DNA from: Heptranchias perlo
Taxonomy: Eukaryota
DNA: 64,000 nt
Reading direction: 5' to 3'
NCBI RefSeq assembly: GCF_035084215.1
Contig: NW_027139442.1
Location: 1,054,001 to 1,118,000 of the forward strand
The notes under the pieces: generated by a model
Databases searched by the model: none
Seen by the model: the letters and a program-made list of their open reading frames with translations, nothing else
Told to the model about the DNA's origin: nothing
Position numbers and translations under genes: made by a program
Shown: piece after piece, positions 28,490 through 64,000 of the stretch
How positions within the stretch are numbered: position 1 is the first letter of the stretch
Layout: the number at the start of each line of letters is the position of its first letter

Positions 28490-30950
28490 TATTGAACACC
28501 GTAATGTAATCTGAGAGAATAATTATAGACAGATACAGAATGAATATCACATTCAGTCACAGTACAGCGACACAGACACAGAATGAATCCAACACTCAAA
28601 GATGCAAAAGGAATCCCAACCTCTCATACAGTACTAGGGGCTGACAGACACCGAGTTAATCCCAAACTCTCAGATAAAGTACCAGAGATTGAGAGATTCA
28701 GTATGAATCCCATGTTCACACAGTACCAGACACTGAGAGATGCATAAAGAATCCCACACTAACATGCAGTATGAATAACTGCATATTTGGGATGAATTCA
28801 ACACCCACATACAGTACTGGAGACTGTATATAGAGATTGAGTCCCACATTCACATAGAGTAGCAGAGACTGACAGATGCCGAAAGAATCCCACACGGTAT
28901 GAGAGATTGCATACACAGAATGAATCACAAACTCTCACACACATTGCTGACAAGATACAGAATGAATCCCAAACTCACACACAGTACCAGAGACTGACAG
29001 ATAGAGAATTCATATCACTCGCATAGAGTAGCAGAGATTCAGAGATACAGAATGAATGTCTCACTCATGTACAGCATCAGAGGCTGACAGGAACCGAAAG
29101 AATACCCCACACACACAGTTCCAGATTGACAGATACAAAATGATTCCCACACTCACATACAGTACCAGAAAGTGACAGGAACAAAGCGAATCTCACTCAC
29201 AAACAGTACCAGGGACTAACAGATACAGAATGAATCCCACTCTCAGATACCGTACCATAGACACAGAATAACTCCTACACTCACATACAGTCCCAGAAAG
29301 TGAGAGGAACAAAGCGAATCTCACTCACAAACTGTACCAGAGACTGACAGATACATTATGAATCCCTCTCTCGGATACCGTACCATAGACACAGAATGAC
29401 TCCTATATTCACATACAGTACCAGAAAGTGACAGGAACAGAGTGAATCACACTCACACAAAGTACCAGGGATTGAAAGATATAGAATGAATCCCACACTC
29501 ACACACAGTACTACAGTCAGACAGATACGAAATGAATCTCACAATCACATTACTGTAGATTGAGTTACACATTACTTACCAGTCTGAAAATCTCATAGGG
29601 TTTGTTTGAATGATACTCTAAAAATTCCATTAGTGAAGATGGAGCTACACATTACATAGCAATCCAAAAATGCCATAGTGTCAGATTGAAAGATACAGTA
29701 TCAATTCCATTAATGCAGACTGAGCTGCACATTATATACATTCCTAAGTACTCATACACTATTAAACTGAAATATACATTATCAATTCCATTGATACAGA
29801 CAGAACTATACATTAGTCCAAAAATCTCATAAATGATCAGACTGGAAGATCCAATATCAATTCCATTAGTGTAAACTGAGCCATACATTATATTGCAGTC
29901 CAACAATCTCATATATCAGACTCAAAGATACAATATCAATTCCATTAGCACAGACTGAGCTACATGTTACACGCCAGTCCAAAAACCCCAGAATGTCAGA
30001 CTGATAGATGCAATATCAATTCCTTTAGTGCAGGCTGTGCTACACATCACATTCCAGACCAAAAATCTCATACACTATCAGACTGATAGACACTTTATCG
30101 ATTCCATTAGAGCAGGCTGAGCTACACATTACATATCAATCCAAAAATCTCTTACAGCAACAGACTGATAGCGACATTATCAATTCCATTAATCCTAACC
30201 CGAACCCTAATACAGGCTGAGCTACACATTACATACCAGTCAAAAATGTCAAACAGTATCACACTGAGATACAGAATTAATTCCATTATTGCAGACTGAG
30301 CTACACATTACATACCAGTCCAATAATTTCACCGGGAACAGATTGAAAGTTACATTATCATTCACAATAGTGTTCAAAGATTAAGATGTAATATTACTCC
30401 AAAACTCACACACGTCATTTGATTAAAGAAAGTAGAAAAGTTTATCCAAATTCACAAATTAAACACTCGACAAAGAACTGTATATACTTTAAAGAATTAA
30501 AGATGCAGTTTCAAATCCGATACTGCAAACTGAAATAAGAATACGGAATGAATTCAGACTTGCTCATTGTCTCAGAGACCGAATTACAGAATGAATCCCA
30601 CACTCAGATACAGCACCAGAGACTGACAGTTACAGAATTAATTCCACACTCACACACAGTACCAGAGACTGACGGATACAGAATTAATCGCACATTCACA
30701 TACAGCACCATAGACAGGCATTTACAGAATGAATCCCTCACTCATATATAGCAGCAGAGATTAACAGATACGGAATGAATCCCACACTCACATCCAGTAC
30801 CAGAGACTGACAGTTACAGAATCAATCCCACACTCACACACATTACCAGAGACTGAGAGATACAGACTGATTCCCACATTCATTTGCAGTACCAGAGAGT
30901 GAAAGATACAGAATGAATGTCAAACTCACATACAGGACCAAAGACTGAGA
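28490..30950. repeat. Composite satellite block (46-bp and about 82-bp units), inverted relative to the later blocks
   Basis: Arrays of (cagtaccagagactgacagatacagaatgaatcccacactcaca..) flank an array of (cagactgagctacacattacataccagtccaaaaatctc..). Confidence 0.9.
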
Positions 30951-31500
30951 TTCAGAATTGCTGCTTTACTCGGTCATCATTCTTTGAATCTGATGGAGAA
31001 ATTGAAAGAAAGTCAGTGAAACTGCCCAATTTTAATGTTTGTCTCCGTAGAATTTACTGCCCAATAAAGTGAACACGGGTCCGGGGTCCATTCAATTCCC
31101 CTTTTGCTTTGCTCTCGCTCTCATTCAGATTTACACTGCCCCCGGTTTTCCCGTTAACCACCACTTTCAGGGCTAAGAATCAGAATTTAGTTACTTCCTC
31201 TTTCTCACTGTGGAGCCAATCTCTGAAATAATTAATTACTGATGTTAATATCCCGCATATTAGCAGCACGTTCCCCGCAGTGTAACAATGCAGAATGAAT
31301 GATTGGAGAAAAGAATCGGCACATTTTAAGGCTTCGTCAATGATTCCGTTTTCAGGACACACGGTTTCTGTTCAGTCCCTGCAACGGAATCAATCGATAA
31401 CGTGTAATTTGTTATTTTTACAGGTAGAAGTGAAATTTGTCCATATCAGCAATCTTTGAATGGGGTTTTATTCCGCAAGTGATAGACAATGTGTTTTTAA

Positions 31501-32083
31501 AACGGACACCGCGCAACAATCGCCAAACAGGAGGGTTCCCTCCCAGTCGGGGAACACTTCAGCAGTCATGGACATTCATCCACCGACCTTCGGGTAAGCG
31601 TACTCCAAGGCGGCCTTCGAGACACACGACAACGCAAAATCGTCGAGCAGAAATTGATAGCCAAGTTCCGCACCCATGAGGACGGCCTCAACCGGGATCT
31701 TGGGTTCATGTCACGCTACACGTTACCCCACCAGCGAACAAATGTTATCTGTTTTTAATATAATGGGTCTGCCTTCCGGATGTTTCTGCCTCTCTCTGTG
31801 TTTTTTTTTCTCTGCTTTTTTTTCCCTGTTTGTTTTTTTGTTGAATGTGTATTCGGAGGTTCTGCAGGTAACACCTCTCTGTCTGAACACGGTGATTGCC
31901 TTGGCAACGGGCAGTTGCAGGGGCAGTCTGTAAACACCATGTATTATTGTTCAATATGTATAAATGCGTAGGCTTCAAGGAGATCTTGAAACATTTGCCT
32001 GAGGAAGGAGAAAATCTCCGAAAGCTTGTGAATTTAAAATAAAATTGCTGGACTATAACTTGGTGTTGTAAAATTGTTTACAA
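31501..32083 (+). mobile_element. Penelope-like element 3' fragment (GIY-YIG C-terminus and pLTR), TSD TTTTTAAAAC
   Basis: 31501-31758 reads NGHRATIAKQEGSLPVGEHFSSHGHSSTDLRVSVLQGGLRDTRQRKIVEQKLIAKFRTHEDGLNRDLGFMSRY. Flanking direct repeats at 31494-31503 and 32084-32093. Confidence 0.9.
31993..32033 (+). ncRNA. Minimal type I hammerhead ribozyme in the pLTR
   Basis: Stem I ATTTGC/GTGAAT, core CTGAGGA, stem II GGAGA-aaa-TCTCC, GAAA, palindromic stem III AGCT. Predicted cut after CUU (32027|32028). Confidence 0.78.
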
Positions 32084-32821
32084 TTTTTAAAACAGCGCTC
32101 GGAATTTGGAACATGTAATACGGAATAACATTATTACAAAGAGATTTTAAGTCTTTGTCTAAAAGCGACATGGCCGAGTAATTCACTTATTTCATAAACT
32201 GAAATTGGCGGCTTTTTTCAAATTTAAAAAAAATCGGTCAATTGGGCCAATAATTTGCTCTGTTTTCTTATTGTCGTCTCTCCGATTCGTTAAGGAATTT
32301 GGTTTTCAAACAAAGCAACCAATGAGAAGTAGCCTCTATTTCCAGCGGGCTTTGCCAGTTGGGCCTGTGGTAATTCCAGGTCCCCAATGACGGAGTTCAA
32401 ACGGTTCAATTTCACAAACCCTCTCAGTATCAGTGTCAGAACAACCGTCAGAGGGAAAATCCATATCACAAGCTGGGCCCTTATCACAGCGGCTCAGCTG
32501 AACCTGTTCTCCCATGGAAACCCCCGGTCCCACATCACAATATCTGACTGATAAATGCAACCAAAACAGAGCGAATGGAGTGAAGGAGCATTTCACCGAG
32601 GGGGAATGCATGTCCGGGTAAACTCACTTGTAACGTTCCCTGGACAATTCAGTGCATTCAAGAAGGGAAATTTTCCTCTCAGTAACCGGTGCAGCACACC
32701 GCCGATCCCACGTCACCGTTCTGTGTGTCACAGAAAACTCCTTAATTATAAAACTATTCCGTAGCCCCACATATCCCCGCACCAGTTCCCAGGTCAGTGC
32801 TCTCTCTGTGAGGCGGTGGTT

Positions 32822-32837
32822 GGCTCTTAGAAGAGCC
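32822..32837 (-). terminator. Histone 3' stem-loop (H4)
   Basis: GGCTCTTCTAAGAGCC on the minus strand with a downstream GAGAGAGC HDE. Confidence 0.92.
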
Positions 32838-32872
32838 TTTGTTTTGTGTTCGGTTAGAAAGGGTCGAGTTGT

Positions 32873-33193
<321 letters not shown>

Positions 33194-33424
33194 TCACTCA
33201 GATCGCTGCTGAATGAAAGACTCTCGCCTTTCTTCTGTATTTCTAAAGCCCGCCCCGACCTGGTTGAGATAGGCACATTATCGGAGAGGCCGGGGAGGAG
33301 TGTCTGAATGAAAGACAGAGCATGAAGTGCGGGAGGGGAGGAGCCTGGCTCAGAATGACGGACGAGAAGACGTGCAACTTCAAGCTCCGCCTCCAGCAAT
33401 TAGTTACCGTCCTTTATAAAATTA

Positions 33425-33480
33425 GTGAATTTAAAATAAAATTGCTGGACTATAACTTGGTGTTGTAAAATTGTTTACAA
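33425..33480 (+). mobile_element. 56-nt Penelope pLTR tail insertion, TSD TTATAAAATT
   Basis: Identical to 32028-32083; direct repeats at 33414-33423 and 33481-33490. Confidence 0.9.
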
Positions 33481-33779
33481 TTATAAAATTTTCACCAGCA
33501 TCAAATAGGAAATACAAATTCAGACACAATCCTTACAGACTCCGGCATGATATTCAAGGATTTCCAGAAAAAAAGGCGGAATATATCATTTAAATTCAAT
33601 AAATGAGGCACACTACAGTTCCAATACAATCACTATCATAATAAAATCAATCAATGCCGCTACGGAACCGTTGGAAGAGGGACAGTTTTAGTTTTCAGAT
33701 TTGTCGCTGACAGGAGGCGCCCAATAGTTTAATAAACATAAATCGGTGTGGAAGGCACTCTATACCTTTCCGTACTTGG

Positions 33780-34929: not shown

Positions 34930-35379
<450 letters not shown>

Positions 35380-36343: not shown

Positions 36344-36718
36344 TTACTTGGAGCTGGTGTACTTGGTCACCGCCTTTGTCCCTTCCGACACGGCGTGTTT
36401 GGCCAGTTCTCCGGGCAGCAACAGGCGCACAGCGGTCTGGATCTCCCGGGAGCTGATGGTGTGGCGTTTATTATAATGGGCCAGGCGGGAAGCCTCACCC
36501 GCGATGCGCTCGAAAATATCGTTCACAAAGGAGTTCATGATGCTCATGGCCTTTGAGGAGATGCCGGTGTCGGGGTGAACCTGCTTCATCACTTTGTAGA
36601 CGTAGATGGAGTAACTCTCCTTCCTCGACTTTCTCCGCTTCTTGCCGCCCTTGGCTGGTGCTTTACTTAAGGTTTTCTTGGCGCCCTTCTTGGGAGCTGC
36701 TTTCTTGTCCTCAGGCAT
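36344..36718 (-). CDS. H2B: Histone H2B (124 aa)
   Basis: [12 protein letters not shown]...[10 protein letters not shown]. Upstream TATTTAA, octamer variant CTCATTAGCAT and CCAAT boxes. Confidence 0.98.
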
Positions 36719-37169
36719 CTCAAAACTCAATTTCAGACCCAGAAATGACACAAATCCAATCCGAGCTCGGATTAAATAGGCAGCCCCACAACCCGATGCT
36801 AATGAGGGATGGTGGAAGGCAATGATTGTGATTGGGTCATTGGGAGTGATAAACGTCACCTTTTCCTTTCACTCTCTGATAGGTTTCTTCAGATATCCAA
36901 TCAGATTCAGTATCTGCCACCAATCACAAACACGCTCACACTGCACATTGTCCGGTTTGAGCAATTTGTTCCGAACTGTTGCAGTTCTGCTTCCGGCCAA
37001 TAGATGTCCCCAAACCCCTGACATTGAAGTTTGCAGATGAGAGAGGGGCAGAAGATAAACTCATTCTTCACATTATATTGCACGAGTGGGATTCAGAGAA
37101 ACTGGGAATGGAGAACATTTTGTTGGAGCAAACATTTGTTGTAATGTCGTGTGAAATGCTTGTAATTAT

Positions 37170-39149: not shown

Positions 39150-41100
39150 GATATCAGAATGTATGTGAGTTTGGGATTAATTCTCTGTCAGTTTCTGGGA
39201 CTGTATTGAGTGTGAGATTCATTCTGTGTCTGTCAGTCTCCGGTACTGTGTGTGTGTATGTGTGTGTGTGGGATTTATTCTTTATCTGTCAGTCTCTGGT
39301 GCTTTATGTGAATGTAGGATTCATTCTATTCTTGTCAGTCTCTGGTACTGCGTGTGAGTGTGGGATTCATTGTGTAACTCCGTCTCTGGGACAAAGTGCA
39401 AGTCTGGATTCGTTCTGTATTCTTATTTCATGTTACAGTATATTGCTTGAAACTGTATGTTTAATTCATTAATGTATGCACAATCTTTTGTCTAGCATTA
39501 ATTTGTAATTATGGATAAACTTTTGGATTTTGTTTTAATCAAACAACGTGTGTGAGTTTTGGTGTAGGATTACACTTTAATCTCTGAAGACTATTGTAAA
39601 TGATAATTTACATTTCATCTTTTACTGTGAAATTATTGGACTGGTATTGCTTGTGCAGCTCAGTCTGCGCTAATGGAATTGATACTGTATCTTTCAGTCT
39701 GATTCTGTGTAATATATTTAGATTAGTCTGTAAGGTGTAGCTCAGTCAGCTATAATGGAATTGATACAGTAACAGACTTAAAGATGAAGTATGAGGTTTT
39801 TGAACTGGTATGGAATGTGTAGCTCAGTCTGTACAAATCAAATTGATACTGGGGCTCAATCAGCTATAATAAGAATGATACTGTATCTTTCAGTCCGATA
39901 CCGTGTGAGGTTTTTGGACCGGTATGTAATGTGTAGCTTAGTCTGCACTAATGGAATTGATGCTGTACCTTTTATTCTGCTACTGTGTAATATATTTAGA
40001 CTGGTGTGTAAGGTGTAGCTCAGTCTGCAATAATGGGATTGATACTGTATCTTTCAGCATGGCCAAGAATGTGATTTTTGGACTGGTAGGTAATGTGTAG
40101 CTCAGTTTGCAGTAAAGGAATTGTTACTGTATCTTTCAGTGGGATACACTATGCAAATTTTGGACTATATATAATGTGTAGCTCAGCCTGCACTAATGCA
40201 ATTGATAAAGTATCTTTCAGTCTGACACTGTATGAGATTTATGGGTTGTATGTAATTTGTTGCTCATTCAGCATTGATGGAATTGATACGTTTTCTGTCA
40301 ATCTGACACTGTGATTTTTTTTTGTTCTAGTATGCAATGTGTGGTTCAGTCAACACTTATGGAATTGATGCTGTACATTTCAGCATGAGCTTGAAGTGAT
40401 TTTTGGACTGATATGTAATGTGTAGTTCAGTCTGTACGAATGGAATTGACACTCTAGCTTTCAGTCAGACACTGAGAGAGATTTTTGGACTGGTTTGTAA
40501 TGTGTGGCTTAGTCCACACTAATAGGATTCATACTGTATATTTCAGTACGACACTGCATGCGAATTTTGGACTGTATATAATGTGTAGCTCAGTCTGCAC
40601 GAATGGAATTGATACTGTATCTTTCAGTCTGATGCTGCGGAATATATTTAGACTGGTGTGTAATGTGTAACTCATTCTGCACTAATGGGATTGATACTGC
40701 ATCATTCGGCATGACCCTGAATCTGTTTTTTGAACTGGTATATAATGTGTAGCTCAGTCTGCTGTAATGGAATTCATACTGTGCCTTTCAGTTTGACCCT
40801 GAATGTGATTTTTGGACTGGTATATAATGTGTCGCTCAATCTGCACTAATGGGATGATACTGCATCTTTCAGTCTCATACTGTGAGAGATTTTTGTGCTG
40901 GTATGTAATGTGTACGTCAGTCTGTACTAATCAAATCAATACTATATCTTTCAGTTTTATACTGTATGAGAATTTTGGACTGGTATCTAACGTGTACCTC
41001 AATCTGCAGTAAAGGAATTAAAACTGTACATTTCATTCTGACACCATGAGGTTTTTGAACATATATGTGAGTCAAATATGGGTAACATCTGAATTGGTAT
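39150..41100. repeat. Composite 46/82-bp satellite block
   Basis: Tandem ggactggtatgtaatgtgtagctcagtctgcactaatggaattgatactgtatctttcagtct units preceded by 46-bp units. Confidence 0.9.
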
Positions 41101-42809
41101 CTAATTTGTATCTCAGGGTGCACTATTGGCATGAATACTGCACCTTTAAACTCAAAATGTGTGTGAATTGAGGGCTGGTATTTATTTTTAATCTTGGAGT
41201 ACACTATTGTTATTCACTCTGTATCTATCAATCAGTACCATGTGTCAGTTCTATCTGGTATTTAATTTGTAGCTCAGGCTGAAATAATGTGAGAATTGAA
41301 ACAGTGCCTTTCAATCTGAAACTGGGAGTGATTTTGGACTGGGAATTATTTATTTGCCAGTCAGCGGTACTGAGTCATTGTGAAATAGAAATTCCGTCTG
41401 TCTCTCCTGCTCTGTTTGACTGTTGGATTGGGATCAGTGTGGTATTGACCATTTCTGCTATCTGAGAATGTGGAACTGATGCCTGTCTGTGTCTCTATGC
41501 TCTGAGTGTTAATGTACATACTGTGTGTGAGAAGGAGCTGGCTGCACTGACTGCTCCTTGTGCCTCGGGTGGAGTAAACATCACACTGATTCTGGGTCCT
41601 TCAACGAATTGACTGATGGAAAAAAAACTGTCTCTTGTAACTCAAGAACAGGTGAGGTAGAAAAAACCAAAAGTGATCAATTGAATCTCTCTGTTAATAA
41701 TCATTGTAATATCCACAAAGGAAAAACAGCGATACAAACAGTGTCAGTGTCTGATTCCACTGCAGTACTGCAGCACTCAGCTTCTGCACACCAGGTGTGT
41801 TGCGCAATTTTACAATTTTGTGACATCCAGACACAACCCAACCCCTGCACTGATCCATGAATGGGTCTACCCGATTGGGCAGGGACCTTTGTACATATCA
41901 GATTTCTACTCCCCTTTCTCATGGGACTAACCGTTCAACCGAAACAAAACAGCCGCTGTTTAAAATGTGACCTTCACACTTCTCACCTGATGCCTGCAAT
42001 AGATGCTCTTTGTATAACTCCCCATATCCTTACTGTCCGGCTCTGTTTACTGTTCAATAACAAACACTAAAGGTTAATGGGCAGGTTTAAAAAATCAGAT
42101 TTAGTACCTGCCACCAATCACAAACACGCTCACACTGCACATTGTCCGGTTTCAGCAATTTGTTCCGAACTGTTGCAGTTCTGCTTTCGGCCAGTAGATG
42201 TCCCCAAACCCCGGGACATTGAAGTTTGCAGATGAGAGAGGGACAGAAGATAAACTCATTCTTCACATTATATTGCACGGGTGGGATTTAGAAAAAATGG
42301 AGACGAGCTGCAAGTACATTTTTTTGGACCAAAAACTACTTGTAATGCTGTGTTAAATTCTTGTAATCGATTTAGGGCGTATAGTCAATATTGAGGAAGA
42401 CTGGGACAAAATAAACTTGCAGAACGGCCGTGTCAATGGTCATTGAATTTCAATATAGAAAAGTGTGAGGTGGTGCATTTCGCTCGGGGGAATAAGGAGG
42501 CCACATACTGCTTGGAAAATAAGAGTCTAAATGGGGTAGAGGTGCAATGTAAATCATCCTGAGATATCAGCGAGAAATACTTCGCAATGTAAAGTGAAAT
42601 ACAATGGGGTAAATTCACAACTATCGAATGAGTGAAACAAAAACTTTATTATGAATCAATTGTCTTCATTTTTCACCGTCAAAAAGTGCAAAAATACGAG
42701 AGTAAAAGTTGCAGACCGAAACTTCCATCACATTGCACATTATCCTGTTTCTGCAACCACGACAGATAATGTGAATTTGTTCCCTCATTACAGTTCTCGC
42801 TTACGGCCA

Positions 42810-45800
42810 GTAGATGTCAGTCTCTAGCACTGTATATGAGAGTGGGGTTGATTCTGTCATTGTCAGTCTCTGGTACTGTGCGTGATTTTGGGATTCATTC
42901 AGAATCTTCAATCTCTGGTACTGAGTGTGAGCATGGGGTATGTTCAGCATCTTTCAGTCTCAGGTACTATATATAAGTGATGGATTCATTCTGTATCTGT
43001 CAGTCTCTGGTACTTTATGTGAGTGTGGGATTATTTCTGTATCTGTCATTTCCTGGTGCTGTATGTGAGTGTGGGATTCATTCTGTATCTGCCATTCTCT
43101 GCTACTTTATCTCAGTGTGGGATTCATTCTGTCATTCAGTCTCTGAGACAATGTACAAGTCTGGATTCATTCTGTATTCTTATTTCAGTTTACAGTATCG
43201 TATTTGAAACTGTATCTTTAATGCTTTAAATTATATATAGTTCTTCGTCGATTATTTACGTTGTTAACATGGATACATTTTTCGATTTTCTTTATTCAAA
43301 CAATGTGTGAGAGTTTTGGAGCAGTATTATATCTTAATCTCTGAACTGTATTGTGAATGATGATGTACGTTTCAATCTGTTCCCGGTGAAATTATTGGAC
43401 TGGTATGTAATGAGTAGCTCAGTCTGCAATAATGGGATTAATTCTGTATCTGAGTCTAACACGACATGTGATTTTTGGACACGATATGTAATATGTAGCT
43501 CATCCTGCACAAAATGAATTGATACTGTATCTATCAGTCTTATACTGTATGAAGTTTTTGGACTGGTGAGTAACATGTCGTTCAGTCTGTGCTAATGGAA
43601 TTGATATTATATCTTTGAGTCTGATAAGTTATGAGATTCTTGGATTGCTATATAATGTGTGGCTCAGTCTGCACTAATGAAATCGATACTGTACCTTTCA
43701 GTCTAACATTGTATAAGATTGTTGGACTGTTATATAATGTTTAGCTCAGGCGGTGCTAAAAGAATTTAAACTATATCTTTCAGTCTGATCATTTATGTGA
43801 TTTTTGGACTCGTATGTCATGTGTAGCTCAGTCTGCACCAATGGTATTGATAATATTTATATCTGTATAATACTGAATATTTACCAATATATCTAATATG
43901 TAGCTCAGTCTGCACTAATGGAATTTATACTTTATCTTTCAATCTGATACTATGAGATCTTTGGACTGGTCTGTAAAGTGTAACTCAGTCTGCAGTAATG
44001 TGACTGTGACATTCATTCTGTATCCGTCAGTCTCTGGTACTTTTTGAGTGAGAGATTCATTCTGTATCTGTCAGTCCCTGGTACTGTGCGTGAGTGAGAT
44101 TCATTCTGTTCCGGATACTGTATGTAAGTGTAGGATTCATTCTATATCTGTCAGTCTCTGGTACTGAGTGTGAGCATGGGGTATATTCTGCATCTCTCAG
44201 TCTCAGGGGTATTACATATAAGTGATGGATTCATTCTGTATCTGTCAGTCTCTGCTACTTTATCTCAGTGTGCGATTCATTCTGTAATTCAGTCTCTGAG
44301 ACAATGTGCAAGTCTGGATTCATTCGGTGTTCTTATTTCAGTTTACAGTATCGTTTTTGAAACTGTAGATTTAATACTTTAAATTATATACAGTTCTCCA
44401 TCGAGTATTTAATTTGTTAATATGGATACACTTTTCAATTTTCTTTAATCAAACAATGTGTGTGAGTTTTGGAGTAGTATTACATCTTAATCTATGAACT
44501 TTATTGTGAATGATAATGTACCTTTCAATCTGTTCCCGGTGAAATTATTGGACCCTTATGTAATGTTTAGTTTATTCTGCAATAATGGGATTAATTCTGT
44601 ATCTCAGTCTAAACTGTATGAGATTTTTGGACTGGTGTGTAACATGTAGCTCAGTCTGATAAGGTATGAGATTCTTGGACTGCTATATAATGTGTGGCTC
44701 AGTCTGCACTCATGAAATCGATACTACATATTTTAGTCTAATATTTTATGGGATTTCCAGTCTGGTATGTAATGTACAGCTCAGGCAGTGCCAATAGAAT
44801 TGAAACTCTATTTTCCAGTCTGATCATTTATGAGGTTTTTGGACTCGTATATAATGTGTAGTTCAGTCTGTAGCAATGGTATTGATACTGTTTATTTCAG
44901 TATAATACTCCATGAGTATTTACCAATATATCTAATATGTAGCTCAGTCTGCGCTAATAGAATTGATACTGCACCTTTAAATCTGACACTATGAGATTTT
45001 TGCACTGGTATGTAATGTGTCACTAAGACAGCATTGATGGAATTGATGAGGTATCTTTCGATCTGCGACTGTGAGATTTTTGCTCTGGTACGTAATGTGT
45101 AACTCAGCCTGCACTAATGTAGGTGACTGTGAGATTCACTTTGTATCTCTCAGTCTCTGGTACTGACTGTGAGTGTGGGATTCATGCTGTAACTGTCACT
45201 CTCTGGTACTCTATTTGACTGTGGGATTCATTCTGCATATAGATTCTCTAGTACTGTGTGTGGGTGTTGAATTATTTCCATATATGCAGTTTCTCATAAT
45301 GTATGTTGGTGTGAGATTCATACTGTATCTGTCAGTCTCTGGTACTGTGTGTGAGTGTGAGATTAATTCTGTATCTGCCAATCTCAGGTACTGCGTGTGA
45401 GTGTGGCATTCATTCTGTATCTCTCAGTCTCTGGCACTGTGTGTGAGTGTGGGATTCATTCTGTATCTGTCAGTCTCTGGTGCTGTGTGTGAGATTCATT
45501 CTGTATCTGCCAATCTCAGGTACTGTGTGTGAGTGTGGGATTCATTCTGTATCTGTCAGTCTCTGGTACTGTGTATGAGTGTGAGATTCATTCTGTATCT
45601 GTCAAACTCAGGTACTGCTTGTGAGTGTGGTCTTCATTCTGTATCTGCCAATCTCAGGTACTGTGTTTGAGTTTGGGATTTATTTTGTATCTCTCAGTCT
45701 CTAGTGCTTTATGAGAGTGTGGGATGGTTTTGCTATCTGTCAGTCCTTGGTACTGTATGTCAGTGTGGGATATATTCTGTATCTGACATCTCTCGTGCCA

Positions 45801-46250
45801 TATTTGAGTGTTGGATTCACTCTGTGTCTGGCAACCTCTAGTACTGTATGTGAGTGTGGGATTCATTTTGTGTTTGTGTGTCTCTGTACTGTATCTGAGT
45901 GTGAGATTCATTCTGTATCTGTATATAATTATTCTCTCAGATTACATTATGGTGTTCAATACTGTAGCTTTACTATCTTAATGTTTAAACAGTTTTTCCC
46001 AGTATTTAATTGGTAAACATGGATACACTTTAGGATTTGATGCTGGAGGTTTTAATCAGAAGATTTGTGTTTTTTGGACTAGTATCATATCAGTATCTCT
46101 GTGAGTACTATTGTGAATGATAATATTTCTTTCAAGCTGATATGGTGACATTTTTGAATTGGTATATAATGTGTCGATCAGCCTGCAGTAAAGGAATTGA
46201 TACTGTATCTTTAAATCTCATGCTATGAGTGTATTATAAACTGGTATCTA
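42810..46250. repeat. Composite 46/82-bp satellite block with higher-order duplication
   Basis: Alternating arrays; roughly 42900-44030 is repeated at roughly 44140-45130. Confidence 0.9.
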
Positions 46251-46557
46251 ATTTGTTTCTCAGGTTACACTGTCACAGGATTTCTCAATCTGATATTGTA
46301 CATGATTTTTGGACTTGCAATTTGTATTCGAATGGTACACTATTCGAATGGATACTGCATGTATTAAACTCACGTGTGGGTGTGAGGGTTCTTGTCTGGT
46401 ATTCAATTGGAATCTCGGGGTATCTGGTTTTTAATTCATGGCGAATGCTGCACTTCTTGGAAATTGACAATCTGATAGTGTGACTTTGGACTGGGATTTT
46501 TGTATCTACCTGTCAGCGGGACTGAGTTCGGGTGCAATGGAACAGCGTCTGCCTCAC

Positions 46558-50768: not shown

Positions 50769-51500
50769 ACCCACCGCCTCACAGACCTGGGAACGATCTC
50801 GGGCTGGGGAAGCAGTTTCCGATATGTCCGGGCCGGGCCTCACTCGAACTGGCGTGTGTTCGGCTCCAGTCCCAGTTCATTTTTCTCACAGATTCAGGGC
50901 GAGAGTCCGTGACAGGGTAAAACTGGCGGAGATCCGCCGCTATCACAATTCAAACCCCAACACATGAGATTCTCCAAATCAGCTGGAATAAGTGTTTGTA
51001 AACTGCTGAACCGGTCTGGGAGGGGATGTGTGGGGAGATAGAATCGGGTCTGCCACTGAAGTGGAAGGAGACGGGTAGATATGTTATAGAAGGGACTGTA
51101 TTTGGGCAGGAATATTACTGACTCTTAATTGTAATGGGGCTTATTTAAAAGCTCCGAGTTTCTGGAAATCCTTGAATATGAAGCCCGAGTCTATAAGGGT
51201 ATGTGCGGAGCGCTGTGTTTCGGTTCAGTTATCGATAAACGGTTTGAAATTGGCGGGTGGAGAAAGCTGGAGGTGGAGCTGGAAGATCAGAGGCCGCTCT
51301 CTGCTCTGTCCGTTACTCTGACTCTCTCCTCCCCTCTCTGTTTAATATCTCACTCTGTCTCCTCCCCTCTTTGTTCAATGTCTCACTTTGTCTCCTCCCC
51401 TCCCTCTATCATCCTGTGAATGTTTCAGTCAGGTCGGGACAGGCTGCATAAAAAGGGAACCAGCATAAGTTCGCTGTTCATTCAGCAGCGATCTGAGTGA

Positions 51501-51821
<321 letters not shown>

Positions 51822-52432
51822 ACGAGTCGACCCTTTCTAACCGAACACAAAACAAAGGCTCTTCTAAGAGCCACCCACCGCCTCACAGAGAGAGCACTGA
51901 CCTGGGAACGGGGAGAGGAAAGATTTCGGAGTGGGGAAGCAGTTTCCGATATTTAATTAAGATGGGGAGATTCCCCAACATTCAGTAAAGGGAGATCAGC
52001 CATCCCGAGAGAAAGCGGAATTCCCGGTTTCACGGTATAAATGAACAGGTGGTGATACAGAGTCTTTCCGCAGACATTACATTCTCCGTTCAGAGTAAAA
52101 TCCCGCCTCACAACCTCTCCCGCTGTCTCCTCTCTGCTCGGTGTTTCATTCAATTATCAGGTCGATGTGAAGTTTCTGTTTGAGGAGCGGTTCACCGGGC
52201 TGGAACTAGCGGGATTTTTGAAATTGAAGCTGGAATTTGTCCGGTTCAGGAAAACAATGACCGGGGCTTAATTCCCGCCCGTTTACAGACAGATCAGAGA
52301 ATGAACCGGAATGTGAAACAGCTTGAGATGTGAGCTGAGGAGTTGGAAATAATGGAGATTATAAAGAGTGGGATTCTTAAATTGCTTGAGGGAAATGAGA
52401 TTTTCTTGAAACTGTTATTTGATGACCTGAAA

Positions 52433-56966: not shown

Positions 56967-57709
56967 TGAATTCAGAAACACCAAGACTGGAACCGAATTT
57001 GATGATGTTCAGAGCGATAATGTTTCCAAACGGGTCCAATTTATATAAAAAATATTTTAAAATTCATTTCTTCCACCATAACGTTGAATTTAACTGTTCC
57101 TTTGTATTATTATTTGCCCTGATCTGTACGGTGGATAAAGGACACAATTGCACGGATCTGTGAAATTAATTGATTGTCTGAAGTTTTTCCCTCTGCTGAT
57201 TCCCGTTCCTTATTTAAATTATGTCGGATTAACCTTTCTGATCTATCGAAGGATCATTGACCTGAATCGTTAACCCGAGCTTCCCTTCTCCACAGATGCT
57301 GCCGGACCTGCTGAGTCTTTCCAGCATTTTCGGTTTTAATTTTTTCTATATTTTATCCCTTTCACTTTTGACGGTCGCCGTTGAAACTTCCAGATTTGCG
57401 CTCAGTTTTTATTTGTGTTGCAGTTCGGTATATTTGAATTAATATAAATCGTGTCATAAGAAATCAGACCGAAATTTTGCGCAATGTAGAGGGAAATATA
57501 ATGTGGCAACTTTCGAACGATCAAAACAAAACTTTATTATGAATCAATTGTTTAATTTTTCACTGACAAAATATGAAAAAATACGAGAGTAGAAGTTACG
57601 GGGAGAAACTATTTCCTCACATTGCACATTGTGCTGAATCTGTAACAACGACAGATGATGTGAATTTATTCCACTCTGTTACAGTTCTTATTGATGTCCA
57701 ATAGATGTC

Positions 57710-59400
57710 AGACTGTATGAGAGTGTGGGATTAATTCTCTGTCTGTCAGTCAGTATGTGAGTGTGAGATTCATTCTGTATCCGTCAGTCTCCAGTACAGT
57801 CTGTGAGTGTGGGATTCATTCTGTATCTGTCAGTCTCCAGTACAGTCTGTGAGTGTGGGATTCATTCTGTATCTGTCATTCTCTGGTACCGTGTGTGAGT
57901 TTGGGATTCATTCTGTATCTGTCAGTCTCTGGCACTGAATGTGAGTGTGGGATTCATTCTGTATCTGTCAGTCTCTGGTACTGTCTGTGAATGTGGGATT
58001 CATTCTGTATCTGTCAATCTCTGGTACTATATGTGAGTGTGGGATTCATTCTGTATCTGTCAGTCTCTGGTTCTGTGTGTGAGTGTGGGATTCATTCTGT
58101 CTCTGTCAGTCTCTGATACTGTCTGTGAATGTGGGATTCATTCTGTATCTGTCAATCTCTGGTTCTATCTGTGAGTGTGGGTTTCATTCTGTGACTGTCA
58201 GTCTCTGGTATTTTATCTCAGTGGGGGATTCATCCTGTAACTCAGTCTATGGGAAAAGTGCAAGTCTGGATTCGTTCTGCATTCTTATTTCAGGTTGCAG
58301 TATAGTTCTTGAAACTGTTTCTTAAATTCATTAATATGTACAAATCTTTTGTCTGGCATTAATTTGTAAATATGGATACACTATTGGATTTTGTTTTCAT
58401 CTAACAACGTGTGTGAGTTTTGTTGTAGGATTATATCTTAATCTCTGAAGATAATGTACATGTCAATCTTTTGCTGTGAATTTTTTGGACTCGTATTTAA
58501 TGCGTAGCTCAGTCTGGACTAATGGAATTGATATTGTATCTTTCAGGCTGACACTGTATGAGATTTTTGACCTGGTATGTCATCTGTTGTTCTGTCTGTA
58601 CAAATGGAATTGACACTCTAACTTTCAGTCAGACACTGCAAGAGATTTTTGGACTGGTTTGTAATGTGTAGCTCAGTCTGCACTGATGGAATTCATACTG
58701 AACCTTCCAGTCTGATACTGTGTCATATATTTAGGCTGGTTTGTAAGGTGTCGTTCACTCTGCACCAATGGAATTGATACTGTATCTTTCAGTTTGACAC
58801 TTTTGGACTGGTATCTAATGTGAACCTCAGTCTGCACTAATGGGTTTGATACTGTATCTTCCAGTCTGATACCGTGTGAGGTTTTTCTACTGGTATGTTA
58901 CGTGTAGATCAGTCTGTACTAATCAAATCGATACTATATATTCCATTATGATACTGTACTTGATTTTTGGACAGGTATCTAATGTGAATCTCTGTCTGCA
59001 GTAAAGGAATTGATACTGTGCCTTTCAGTTTGACACAATGTGATTTTTGGACAGGTAACTAATGTGTACCTCAGCCTGCACTAATGGGATTGATACTGTA
59101 TCTTCCAGTACGAGACTCTATGTGAATTTTGGACTTGTATATAATGTGTAGCTCAATCCGCACTGATGGAATTGATTCTGTATCTTTCAACCTGACACTG
59201 AGATTTTTGGACTTGTATGTGACGTGTAGCTCAGTCTGCACCAATGGGATTGATACTGTATCTTTCAGTCTCATACTTTAAGATAATTTTGGACTGGTAT
59301 CTAATGTGTACCTCAGTCTGCAGTAAAGGAATTGAAATGGACATTGCATTCTGACACTATGAGGTTTTTGGACAAATATGTGAGTCAAATTTGGGTAACA
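57710..59400. repeat. Composite 46/82-bp satellite block
   Basis: Period 46 (57783 vs 57829), followed by 78-82-bp units. Confidence 0.9.
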
Positions 59401-61119
59401 TCTGAACTGGTATCTAATGTGTATCTCAGTGTACAATGTGGTCATGAATACTGCATCTTTAAACTCATAATGTGTGAGAGTTGTGGGCTGGTACTTAATT
59501 TGAATCTCGGGTACACTATTGTGATTCATTCTGTACCTATCAATCGGTCCCATGTGTCAGTTCTATCTGGGATTTAATTTGTAGCTAAGGCTGAACTAAC
59601 GTGAGATTGACACAGTGCCTTTCAATCTGATACTGGGTGTGATTTTGGACTGGGAATTATTTATCTGCCGGTCAGCGGTACTGAGTCATTGTGAAATGGA
59701 AATTCCGTCTGTCTCTCCTGCTCTGTTTGACTGTTGGATTGGGATCAGTATGCGACTGGCTATTTCTGCTGTCTGAGATTGTGGGACTGGTGACCTATCC
59801 TTGTCTCTGTGCTCTGTGAGTGTTAATGTACCTACTGTGTGTGAGAAGCAGCTGGCTGCATTGACTGCTCCACGTGCCTCGGGTGGAGTCAACATCACAT
59901 TGATTGTGGGTCCTTCAAGGATCTGCCTGCAGGAAGAAAAAATATCGCTTGTAACTTAACAACAGGTGAAGTAGAAAATACAAACGTGATCAATTGAATC
60001 TCTCTGTTAATAATCATTGTAATATCTACAAATAGAAAACCAGTGATACAAACAGTGTCAGTGTCTGACTCCACTGCAGTACTGCAGCACTCAGCTTCTG
60101 CACACCAGGTGTGTTGGGCTGTTTTACAAAAAATTAGTGACATCCAGATACAACCCAACCCCTGCACTGATCCATGGGGCGGGAACCTTTGTACAGGTCA
60201 GGTTTCTAATCCCCTCTCCCATGGGACTAACCATAAAACCGAAACAAAACAGCCACTGTTTAAAATTTGTCCTTCAAACAGCTCACCTGATGCCTGCAAT
60301 AGATGGTCTTTTTATAACTCCCCATATCCTTACTGTACGGCTCTGTTCACTGTTCAATAACAAACACTAAAGGTTAATGGGCAGATATGAAAAATCAGAT
60401 TTAATTCCTGCCACCAATCACAAACACGTTCACACTGCACATTATCCGGTTTCACCAATTTGTACCGAATTGTTGCGGTTCTGCTTCCGGCCAGTTGATG
60501 TCCCCAAACCCCGGGACATTGAAGTTTGCAGATGAGAGAGGGACAGAAGATAAACTCATTCTTCACATTATATTGCACGAGTGAGATTTAGAAAAACTAG
60601 GAATGGAGACGTGCTGCAAGTACATTTTGTTAGACCAAACACTATTTGTAATGCTGTGTTAAATTCTTCTAATCAATTTAGGGGGTATTATCTATTCTGA
60701 GGAAGACTGTGAAGCTAGGAGAACGGCCGTGTAAATGCCCATTGAATTTCAATATAGAAAGGTGCGAGGTGGTGCGTTTCACTTGGGGGAATAAGGAGGC
60801 CACATACTGCTTGGAAAAGAAGAGTCTAAATTGGGTGGAGGAGCAATGTAAATCGTGTCCTGAGAAACCAGAGAGAAATACTGTGCAATGTACAGTGAAA
60901 TATAATGCGGTAAATTCACAACTATCGAATGAGTAAAACAAAAACCTTATTATAAATCAATTGTCTTCATTTTTCACTATCATAATGTGCAAAAATGCGA
61001 GAATAATTGTTACAGACAGAGACTTTCCTCACATTGCAGATTGTCCTGTTTCTGTCACCATGACAGATGATGTGAATTTGTTCCACTCTTTTACAGTTCT
61101 CGCTTACGTCCAGTAGAGG

Positions 61120-63100
61120 TCAGTCTCTGGTACTGTGTATGAGAGTGGGGTTTCTTCTGTGTCTGTCTGTCTCTGGGACTGTGTGTGAGAATGGGGTTTA
61201 TTCTCTACCTGTCTGTCTCTGGTACTGTGCGCGAGTTTGGGATTCATTCTGTATCTATCAGTCTCCACTACTGAGTGTGAGCGTAGGGTATATTCTGCAT
61301 CTGTCAGTCGAAGGTACTACATATAAGTGATGGATTCATTCTGTATCTGTCTATCTCTAGTACCTGTCAGTCTCTGGTACTGTCTGTGAGTGTTGGATAC
61401 ATTCTGTATCTGCCATTTTCTGCTATTTTATCTCAGTGTGGGATTCATTCTGTAATTCAGTCTCTGAGACAATGTGCAAGTCTGGATTCATTCTGTATTC
61501 TTATTTCAGATTACAGTATCGGATTTGAAACTATATTTTTAATACTTTAAAATATATACAGTTCTTCGAGTATTTAATTTGTTAATATGGATACAATTAT
61601 CGGTTTTCTTTAATCAAACAACGTGTGTGAGTTTTGGAGTAATATTACATCTTAATCTCTGAACTTTATTATGAATGATAATGTACTTTTCAGTCCGTTT
61701 ATGTTGAAATTACTGGACTGGTATGTAATGTGTAGCTCAGTCTGCAATAATGGGATTAAGTCTATATCTGAGTCTAACACTGACGTTTTTGGACTGGTAT
61801 GTAATATGTAGCTCATCTTGCACTAAAGGAATTGATACTGTATCTTTAAGTCTGATATTGTATGAGATTTTTGGACTGGAATGTGATGTGCAGCTCAGTC
61901 TTCAATAATGGAAGTGATATTGAATCATTCAATCTGTTACTCTATGAGATTTTTGGACTGGTGAGTAACATATAGTTCAGTCTGTGCTGATGAATTTGAT
62001 GTTGTATATTTGAGTCTGTTACATTATGAGATTCTTGGACTGCTATATAATGTGTGGCTCAGTCTGCACTCATGGAATCGATAATCTCTCTTTCAGTCTA
62101 ATATTTTATGGGTTTTTCAGTCTGGGATGCAATGTGCAGGTCAGACAGTGCTAATAGAATTGAAGCTGTATCTTCCAGTCTGAACATTTATGAGGTTTTT
62201 GGACTAGTATGTAATGTGTAGCTCAGTCTGTACCAAAGGTATTGATAATGTATATTTCAGTATAATACTCTATGAGTATTTACCAATATATCTAATATGT
62301 AACTCAGTCTGAACTAATGGAATTGATACAGTATCTTTCAATCTGACACTATGAGATCTTTGGACAGGTATGCAATGTATAACTCAGTCTTCAGTAATGT
62401 GACTGTGACATTCATTCTGTATCTGTCAGTTTGTGGTACTGTGTGAGTGAGATTCATTCTGTTCCTGGTAATCTATGTGAGTATGGGATTCATTCTGTAT
62501 CTGTCAATTTCTTGTACTGTGTGTGAGTATGAGATTCGTTCTGTATCTGCCATCTCTGGTACTGTGTGTGAATGTGGGATTCATTCTTTATCTGTGTGTC
62601 TCTGTACTGTATCTGAGTGTGAGATTCATTCTGTATCTGTATCTAATTATTTTCTCCGATTACATTATGGTATTCAATACTGTACTTTAATATCATAATG
62701 TTTAAATAATTTTTCTCATTATTTAATTGGTAAATTTGGATAAACTTCAGGATTTGATGCTGGAGGTTTTAATCAGATAATTTGTGTGCTTTTGGACTAC
62801 TATTAAATCTATATCTCTTTGAGTAATATTGTGAATGTTAATATATCTTTCAAACTGACATGGTGACATTTTTGAATTGCTATATAATGTGTAGATCAGT
62901 CTGCACGAAATGAATTGATACTGCATTATTACATTTTATTTTATAACATTTTTGGACTGGTATGTAATGTGTATCTCAGTCTGTGCTAATAGAATTGATA
63001 CTGTATTTTTAAATCTCATACTATGAGTATATTATAAACTGGTATCTAATATGTTACTTAGGTTACACTGTCACAGCATTTCTCAATCTGATACTGTACA
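61120..63100. repeat. Composite 46/82-bp satellite block
   Basis: Paralogous to 42810-46250. Confidence 0.9.
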
Positions 63101-64000
63101 TGAGTTTTGGACTGGCAATTTGTATTCGAATGGTACACTATTCGAATGGATACTGCATGATTAAACTCACGTGTGTGTGAGTTCTGGGCTAGTATTCAAT
63201 TTGAATCTCGGGGTATCTGGTACTTAATTCATGGCTAATGTTGCCCTTTTGTGAAATTGACAATCTGAAAGCGAGACTTTGGACTGGGATTTTTGTATCT
63301 ACCTGTCAGTGGGACTGAGTTCGGGAGAAATGGAACAGTGTCTGCCTCACCTGCTCTGTTTGACTGTTGGATTGAAAATGTGTCTCTGGAAATTTGGGAT
63401 CAGTGTGGGACTGACTACTTCTGCTGACTGAGACTGTGGAACTGATGAGCTGTCTGTGTCTCCGTGCTCTGTGAGTGCTAATATACATACTGTGTGTGAG
63501 AAGGAGTTGGCAGCACTGTTCCTTTGCCTCGGGTGGACGAAATTACACATTTAATCTGGCTCCTTCAAGGGTTTGCCTGTAAAAAGAAACGTATCTCTTG
63601 TAACTCAAGAACAGGTGAGGTGGAAAATACAAAAGTGATCAGTTTAATATCTGTTAATAATTATTTTGAATATCCACAATTGAAAATCAGCGATACAAAC
63701 AGTATCAGTATCTGACTCCACTGCAATACTGCAGCACTCAGCTTCTGCAGAGCAGGTGTGTTGGGCTGTTTTATAACAATTTAGAGGCATTCAGACACAA
63801 CCCAACCACTGCACTGGTCCATGAATGGGACTACCCGATGTTCGGGTCAGGTTTCTAAACCCCTCACCCAGGGGACTAACCGTTCAACTGAAAGCAAACA
63901 GCCGTTGTTTAAAATGTGTCCTTCAACTTCTCACCTGGTGCCTGCTCTTTGAATAACTCCCCACATCCTTACTGTCCGGCTCTGTTTCCACTCTTCAATG

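Follow-up and report, generated by a model that had tools for sequence, protein, structure and literature searches.

Short copies of a Penelope-like element end upstream of the predicted hammerhead cut, at an inferred transcription start

Short copies of a young Penelope-like element family in Heptranchias perlo share a 5′ end that lies 39-46 nt upstream of the predicted cut of the hammerhead in the pLTR, and they keep the whole ribozyme. From the position of this peak relative to promoter-like motifs we infer that the RNA starts there and that the short copies were made from RNA with an uncut ribozyme. A preliminary description had interpreted a 56-nt copy, located upstream of a histone H4 gene and beginning with the base right after the predicted cut, as a member of a strong-stop-like class of run-off micro-insertions terminated by the ribozyme cut. 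Such a class does exist, but its 5′ ends sit at −39 and −46/−45 rather than at the cut. The 56-nt copy itself is outside the promoter run-off class and, taken alone, is ordinary. In the one active in vitro system of Penelope-like elements, cleavage was not needed (Frangieh et al. 2024, PMC11167929). The young copies of the present family serve as a record of the RNA templates and point to exact bases, with transcription likely starting 4-11 nt ahead of the ribozyme, two priming sites used in pairs, and long copies that ignore the start. It is the family-wide pattern of 5′ ends, not the single copy, that should interest specialists.

The window, i.e. the whole stretch of 64,000 nt that was analysed (contig NW_027139442.1, positions 1,054,001 to 1,118,000), is a histone gene cluster in a 3.25-Gb assembly. 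Element positions are counted from window base 32028 as +1, the base just 3′ of the predicted cut, and from −1, the base before it. Copies were located by exact and degenerate patterns. Subfamily A is the variant present in the window, and subfamily C is one in which TATA box and ribozyme are further apart.

The element family, its hammerhead motif and its priming sites

Natural intact copies are built of a 3.08-kb unit (3,081 bp in tandems) with a single ORF of 902 aa (L061, L117), and the family numbers tens of thousands of young copies. The ORF matches the Pfam reverse transcriptase profile RVT_1 with 40.8 bits against a cut-off of 29.6. A GIY-YIG-like pair of motifs (VVY..YIG) is visible by eye in the translation, and the C-terminal 189 aa gave no Pfam match at E values up to 10. 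A Cx4CxxC motif in the translation precedes the putative endonuclease region and, by the definition of Craig et al. (PMC8557442), points to the Neptune or Nematis clade. The pLTRs are arranged in partial tandems of the 3,081-bp units and in adjacent inverted copies. Among 190 such head-to-head pairs the apparent duplication length is 12-13 bp in 134. A separate tandem array (G000:C2:21272918-21276299, L468-L476) consists of nine 404-bp units. Each unit spans element positions −184 to +220, a stretch that includes the promoter, the ribozyme and the two priming sites. The array looks retrozyme-type, and similar spacings were listed on C9 (441 bp) and C3 (407 bp).

The minimal type I hammerhead motif occupies window positions 31993-32033 on the plus strand. 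Stem I is formed by 31993-31998 with 32028-32033; CUGAGGA (31999-32005), one unpaired A, stem II (32007-32019) and GAAA-GC-UU make up the remainder. Standard hammerhead numbering places the predicted cut between CUU and GUGAAU, i.e. between 32027 and 32028, and all parts were found where the preliminary description had put them. With its core boxes, the unpaired base at 9/10.1, the palindromic 15.2-16.2 and stems I and II, the predicted motif conforms to the minimal type as published (PMC4209133), cut position included. Natural variants carry paired changes in stem II, with A-U versus G-C at the inner pair. An Rfam search returned no hammerhead match at E values up to 10, and minimum-energy folding of two copies did not give the catalytic dimer, a calculation that is no test of the dimer.

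The 3′ ends of the family cluster in two places. The fetched loci contain 586 distinct copies, of which 286 have their 3′ end at +53..+61 and 266 have it at +90..+103. These clusters (+56 and about +94) correspond to the two internal priming sites, and to the 'tail', that were demonstrated in vitro with the lizard element (PMC11167929). The element's start codon, at +93, lies at the second site. Thus, the part of the earlier proposal that invoked target-primed reverse transcription from a fixed start 56 nt into the RNA agrees with the 3′-end clusters, and this fixed start is an already known feature; the other part, run-off at the ribozyme cut, lacks the corresponding peak. Use of the two sites is paired. 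In 170 of 179 head-to-head pairs the arms divide the sites between them, one stopping at the first and its partner at the second, where half would be expected under free choice (p = 6e-40); 11 further pairs with other ends stand outside the 179. This suggests that one complex primes both DNA strands, one per site, in line with the two-strand extension and the predicted dimer described for the lizard element (PMC11167929). The one-sided tail as such is already known (PMC3846280, PMC8557442).

The upstream peak of 5′ ends

The distribution of 5′ ends was read from 87 copies unselected for this end, namely the first 30 loci of 35-nt matches and off-centre copies elsewhere, with both arms of pairs counted. 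Thirty-six end at −51..−28, none at −27..+1 and nine at +2..+17; the rest end at −299..−52 (8 copies) or beyond 300 nt (34 copies). In subfamily A, 1,460 matches end at −45..−35, and −39 alone accounts for 59 of the first 100 in a hand tally. For subfamily C there are 1,883 ends at −51..−39; in its first 100, also tallied by hand, 17 fall at −46, 34 at −45, 13 at −44 and none beyond −48. Solo copies flanked by target-site duplications (TSD solos) behave alike, with 10 of 14 at −40/−39 in subfamily A (eight of the 14 at −39 itself) and 15 of 16 at −46..−44 in subfamily C. They derive from 46 (A) and 52 (C) loci, of which 16 and 22 had been chosen as not inverted. The single position −39 in one subfamily collects about 16 times the ends found at +1 across all subfamilies that share that stretch.

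The peak keeps a constant distance from a promoter-like motif. A TATAAAT box, kept in most subfamilies, lies at 31959-31965 on the plus strand of the window and starts at −69, and the main 5′ end of short subfamily A copies, the inferred transcription start, is plus-strand base 31989 (−39). In subfamily C the box starts at −75. The 5′ peaks (−39 in A, −46/−45 in C) follow the box by 29-30 nt in both subfamilies, and that of subfamily C sits on an initiator-like TCATTTC motif with its A at −46. This spacing and the names TATA box and initiator follow textbook usage. In some variants only 27 nt separate the TATA box and the initiator A, or the box is replaced by TTCAAAT; the TTCAAAT subfamily (L490, L491, L495, L506, L507) keeps the initiator-like motif. 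In a third subfamily a few truncated rows end at this motif by hand reading; as the filter had also passed untruncated copies of another variant, the total of 3,430 was set aside. A cap-derived added G, sought in the TSD solos, showed no pattern (in subfamily A a G follows in any case). Neither peak is preceded by AG, which rules out a splice acceptor.

Ends of cDNA could also gather at this place if the polymerase stopped, or ends were preferentially joined, through RNA structure or microhomology at the 5′ edge of the ribozyme. Between the peak and the 5′ strand of stem I there are indeed only 4-11 nt, and in head-to-head copies the peak falls on AAA or TTT runs, which favour joining, much of their −39 peak being on an AAA microhomology. 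Nevertheless, we judge this explanation quite improbable. The peak moves with the TATA box and the initiator, not with the ribozyme, and the TSD solos show it too. Moreover, long cDNAs cross the same sequence without stopping. Stops in −51..−28 were seen in 0/26 long copies, defined as those reaching at least 1.4 kb into the ORF and passing the cut upstream, against 36/75 others (p = 2e-6; 8e-6 for the 22 independent long copies). A looser definition including copies that end soon after the start codon gave 3/31 (p = 1e-4), with nine loci of one 404-bp array left out.

The strong-stop class of the family would accordingly be explained by initiation of transcription rather than by a barrier: uncut RNA starting 29-30 nt after the TATA box would be primed at +56 or about +94 and copied through the intact ribozyme and off the RNA 5′ end; the resulting copies would be about 95-140 nt long. 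With the lizard element, uncut RNA predominated as the substrate in vitro, and among the RNA-seq reads none had its end at the cut (PMC11167929). The promoter of the D. virilis element, in contrast, is TATA-less (PMC2377424). A search of the open-licence literature found no report of a promoter run-off peak.

The 56-nt insertion and the predicted cut

The 56-nt copy is a 5′-truncated Penelope-like insertion at 33425-33480 (plus strand), comprising pLTR positions +1..+56. It agrees in 56/56 bases with 32028-32083, on the same strand and 1.4 kb apart; beyond these 56 nt the match extends by no base leftward and by two bases rightward (TT, common to the duplication). A 10-bp target-site duplication, TTATAAAATT, flanks it at 33414-33423 and 33481-33490 on the plus strand, and an extra A, a filler at the 5′ junction, occupies 33424. 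As the initial TT of the right copy also equals element positions +57/+58, the 3′ edge of the insert is +56..+58. The 5′ edge can be read as +1 plus one added A or as −2/−1 plus one changed base. The right flank has 17 exact matches in the genome, of which 12 were fetched, all paralogous H4 promoters. Ten have an empty site with a single TTATAAAATT and two, the window and L448, contain the insert. Empty sites and duplication together establish a true insertion, and the identity, the duplication and the extra A reported in the preliminary description are all borne out. The same holds for its distance of about 240 bp from the start codon of the H4 gene (32873-33184, minus strand), whose ATG at 33184 is 241 bp away.

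Several features of the surroundings may be added. The opposite strand of the empty target site at 33481-33500 resembles element positions −4..+15, which may be chance in A/T-rich sequence. The regions 32782-33217 and 51477-51912 hold two H4 gene copies that are 99% alike, the second inverted, H2A and H2B genes lie at 34930-35379 and 36344-36868, and large 46-bp and 82-bp repeat arrays in both orientations fill 28600-31000, 39200-46400 and 57600-63200 between the histone genes.

The matching sequence 1.4 kb away belongs to a longer 5′-truncated copy of the family (31501-32083, plus strand) that comprises the ORF end, the 3′ UTR and the pLTR to +56. It has its own 10-bp duplication (31494-31503 and 32084-32093) and is 95.8% identical to a natural full unit; its ORF part, the putative endonuclease end (31501-31749, plus strand), agrees in 83/83 residues with residues 818-900 of an intact 902-aa copy. 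Perfect identity over so short a distance and on the same strand would suit a local DNA-level copy of the end of this neighbour. However, a 35-nt part of the 56-mer alone has 45,341 exact matches in the genome. The 56/56 identity is therefore uninformative on the donor and is family identity only, common to tens of thousands of copies. Furthermore, the 56-nt piece is flanked by a duplication of its own and has its end at the priming site of the family, and L448 carries it next to an empty site at the position of the long copy. The neighbour is thus not the donor, and a local copy, contradicted unless the long copy was lost from L448 without trace, is barely credible. The long copy is a separate insertion and most likely the later arrival.

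The preliminary description had seen in the 56-nt copy in vivo evidence of ribozyme cleavage and had looked to a sharp genome-wide peak of 5′ ends at +1 (GTGAAT). A single copy is insufficient for such a conclusion, and no sharp peak is present at this base, the outcome that the description itself had named as speaking against its model: the profile around the cut is flat, with at most about a twofold excess at +1. Patterns demanding three upstream mismatches, and thereby selecting copies with a 5′ end near the cut, found 1,166 copies ending in −7..+6 genome-wide. Among 99 of them (the first 100 minus one identical duplicate; rows examined were the first in contig order, not a random draw), 16 end at −7..−3, 10 at −2, 5 at −1, 11 at +1, 7 at +2, 10 at +3, 21 at +4, 5 at +5 and 14 at +6, mostly as junctions of head-to-head insertions. 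Genome-wide, 178 ends fall on the three positions −2..+1, 210 on the four positions −7..−4 and 222 on the two positions +2..+3, about a fifth of the last being a one-base insertion variant. The first 100 rows of these groups contain 18, 24 and 14 TSD solos. These counts rest on 30 returned loci per search and on 40, 32 and 28 of the remaining 70 rows that by eye were not element-derived, unfetched rows being taken as not solo. Scaled to the genome they amount to about 10.7, 12.6 and 15.5 solos per position, a rate ratio of 0.79 for cut versus flanks (95% interval 0.42-1.42). A solo insert with its start at +3 was met four times between the same flanks (L033, L046 and two other rows); it was therefore likely carried inside another repeat and slightly inflates the +2..+3 solo count.

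The 56-nt copy might still come from a small minority of insertions made by run-off of ribozyme-cut RNA, as first proposed. At exactly +1, 11/99 ends were observed where a microhomology-aware null expects 5.5 (p = 0.023). However, the counts at +3 and +4 are likewise roughly twice the expectation, and taken together −2..+1 shows no excess (26 versus 22 expected, p = 0.2). Ends left of the cut number 16/99 against 39 under a uniform null, i.e. there is a step or slope at the cut. Exactly +1 accounts for 9/18 solos at −2..+1 (25% expected, p = 0.019) and for 31/100 rows ending there (25% expected, p = 0.10). All these tests of the +1 excess, that on the 99 ends included, are post hoc and use overlapping samples. 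Filler bases occur in 15/18 of these solos versus 14/38 flanking solos (p = 0.002, post hoc). Two full-length, TSD-flanked copies with an open ORF start at or beside the cut, L439 (G000:C2:56171000-56179999, minus strand) at +1/+2 and L440 (G000:C3:77358000-77366999) at −2 or +1, and none of the 120 fetched loci of the flanking classes runs into the ORF. In addition, the lizard ribozyme cuts when protein is present (PMC11167929). On the other hand, none of 30 copies continuing past the start codon begins at +1, and the solo rate ratio shows no enrichment at the cut. Overall, an origin from cut RNA seems unlikely for the 56-nt copy, and we estimate any such class at 1-2% of the promoter run-off class at most.

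Most probably, a young Penelope-like element left the 56-nt copy by target-primed insertion, with priming likely at +56 and an early stop that likely coincides with the predicted cut by chance. The endonuclease would have nicked an A/T-rich site in the H4 upstream region, as the target duplication implies, and priming would have taken place at the first fixed start site of the family, seen as the fixed 3′ end at +56. The reverse transcriptase would then have copied 56 nt before an early stop, and repair would have joined the end with one filler A, leaving the 10-bp duplication seen at the junction. Later, the histone unit may have been duplicated together with the insert (L448) before the long copy arrived in the unit of the window.

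Template forms and comparison with known systems

Where long copies continue into upstream partial units, the ends of these units are scattered. Together with the lack of stops among the 26 long copies, this indicates a long-copy template without an end at the promoter start. Since a circle has no 5′ end, long cDNAs made from it would cross the pLTR without stopping. A circle formed by cuts at both ribozymes and rejoining fits the long copies; a circular RNA template was tentatively proposed for tandem copies by Cervera and de la Pena (PMC4209133), who had no in vivo evidence for it. The long copies are equally compatible with transcripts reading through tandem arrays or with highly efficient template jumps. 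Tentatively, and with more doubt than confidence, one may envisage two classes of template: uncut promoter-started RNA giving short run-off copies, and RNA cut at both hammerheads and circularised giving long and tandem copies, with rare cut but unclosed RNA behind the +1 excess, the 56-nt copy, L439 and L440. If true, the two classes would be in vivo fossil evidence of a ribozyme-driven rolling-circle cycle in a vertebrate Penelope-like element.

The minus-strand strong-stop cDNA of LTR retroelements is likewise primed near the RNA 5′ end and runs off at the transcription start. There the primer is a tRNA, whereas in the present family it would be nicked target DNA, with the short product integrated directly. 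In its accessible part, a retrozyme preprint (10.64898/2026.07.22.740005) contains nothing on 5′ ends.

The Poseidon-type element PAc of Anolis carolinensis (PMC11167929) resembles the family in its two internal priming sites defining a 'tail', its A/T-rich targets, its priming on both DNA strands and its pLTR hammerhead, which is dispensable for insertion in vitro. In contrast, the PAc start codon lies inside the ribozyme and not at the second priming site, and the two sites showed no strand preference in vitro, whereas the two arms of an insertion here use different sites in nearly all pairs. Genomic 5′ ends are not charted in the accessible text of that study. Cervera and de la Pena (2014, PMC4209133) described minimal type I hammerheads in metazoan Penelope-like elements; the present motif has in common with them the CUGANGA and GAAA boxes, a single unpaired base ahead of stem II, the G10.1-C11.1 pair, the palindromic 15.2-16.2 and a monomer without helix III, and its activity is predicted from sequence.

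Neptune- and Nematis-type elements (Craig et al. 2021, PMC8557442; Arkhipova et al. 2013, PMC3846280) likewise have an inverted pLTR, a one-sided tail of 30-40 bp, heavy 5′ truncation, partial tandems with an adjacent inverted copy, and CX2-5CxxC ahead of a GIY-YIG region. One rotifer pLTR described there also has a putative TATA box and initiator, and the accessible portions of the two papers do not report short copies piling up at the promoter start or long copies that ignore it. In the model of Arkhipova et al. the element primes itself on an antisense template, whereas the data presented here fit two-strand priming on sense RNA.
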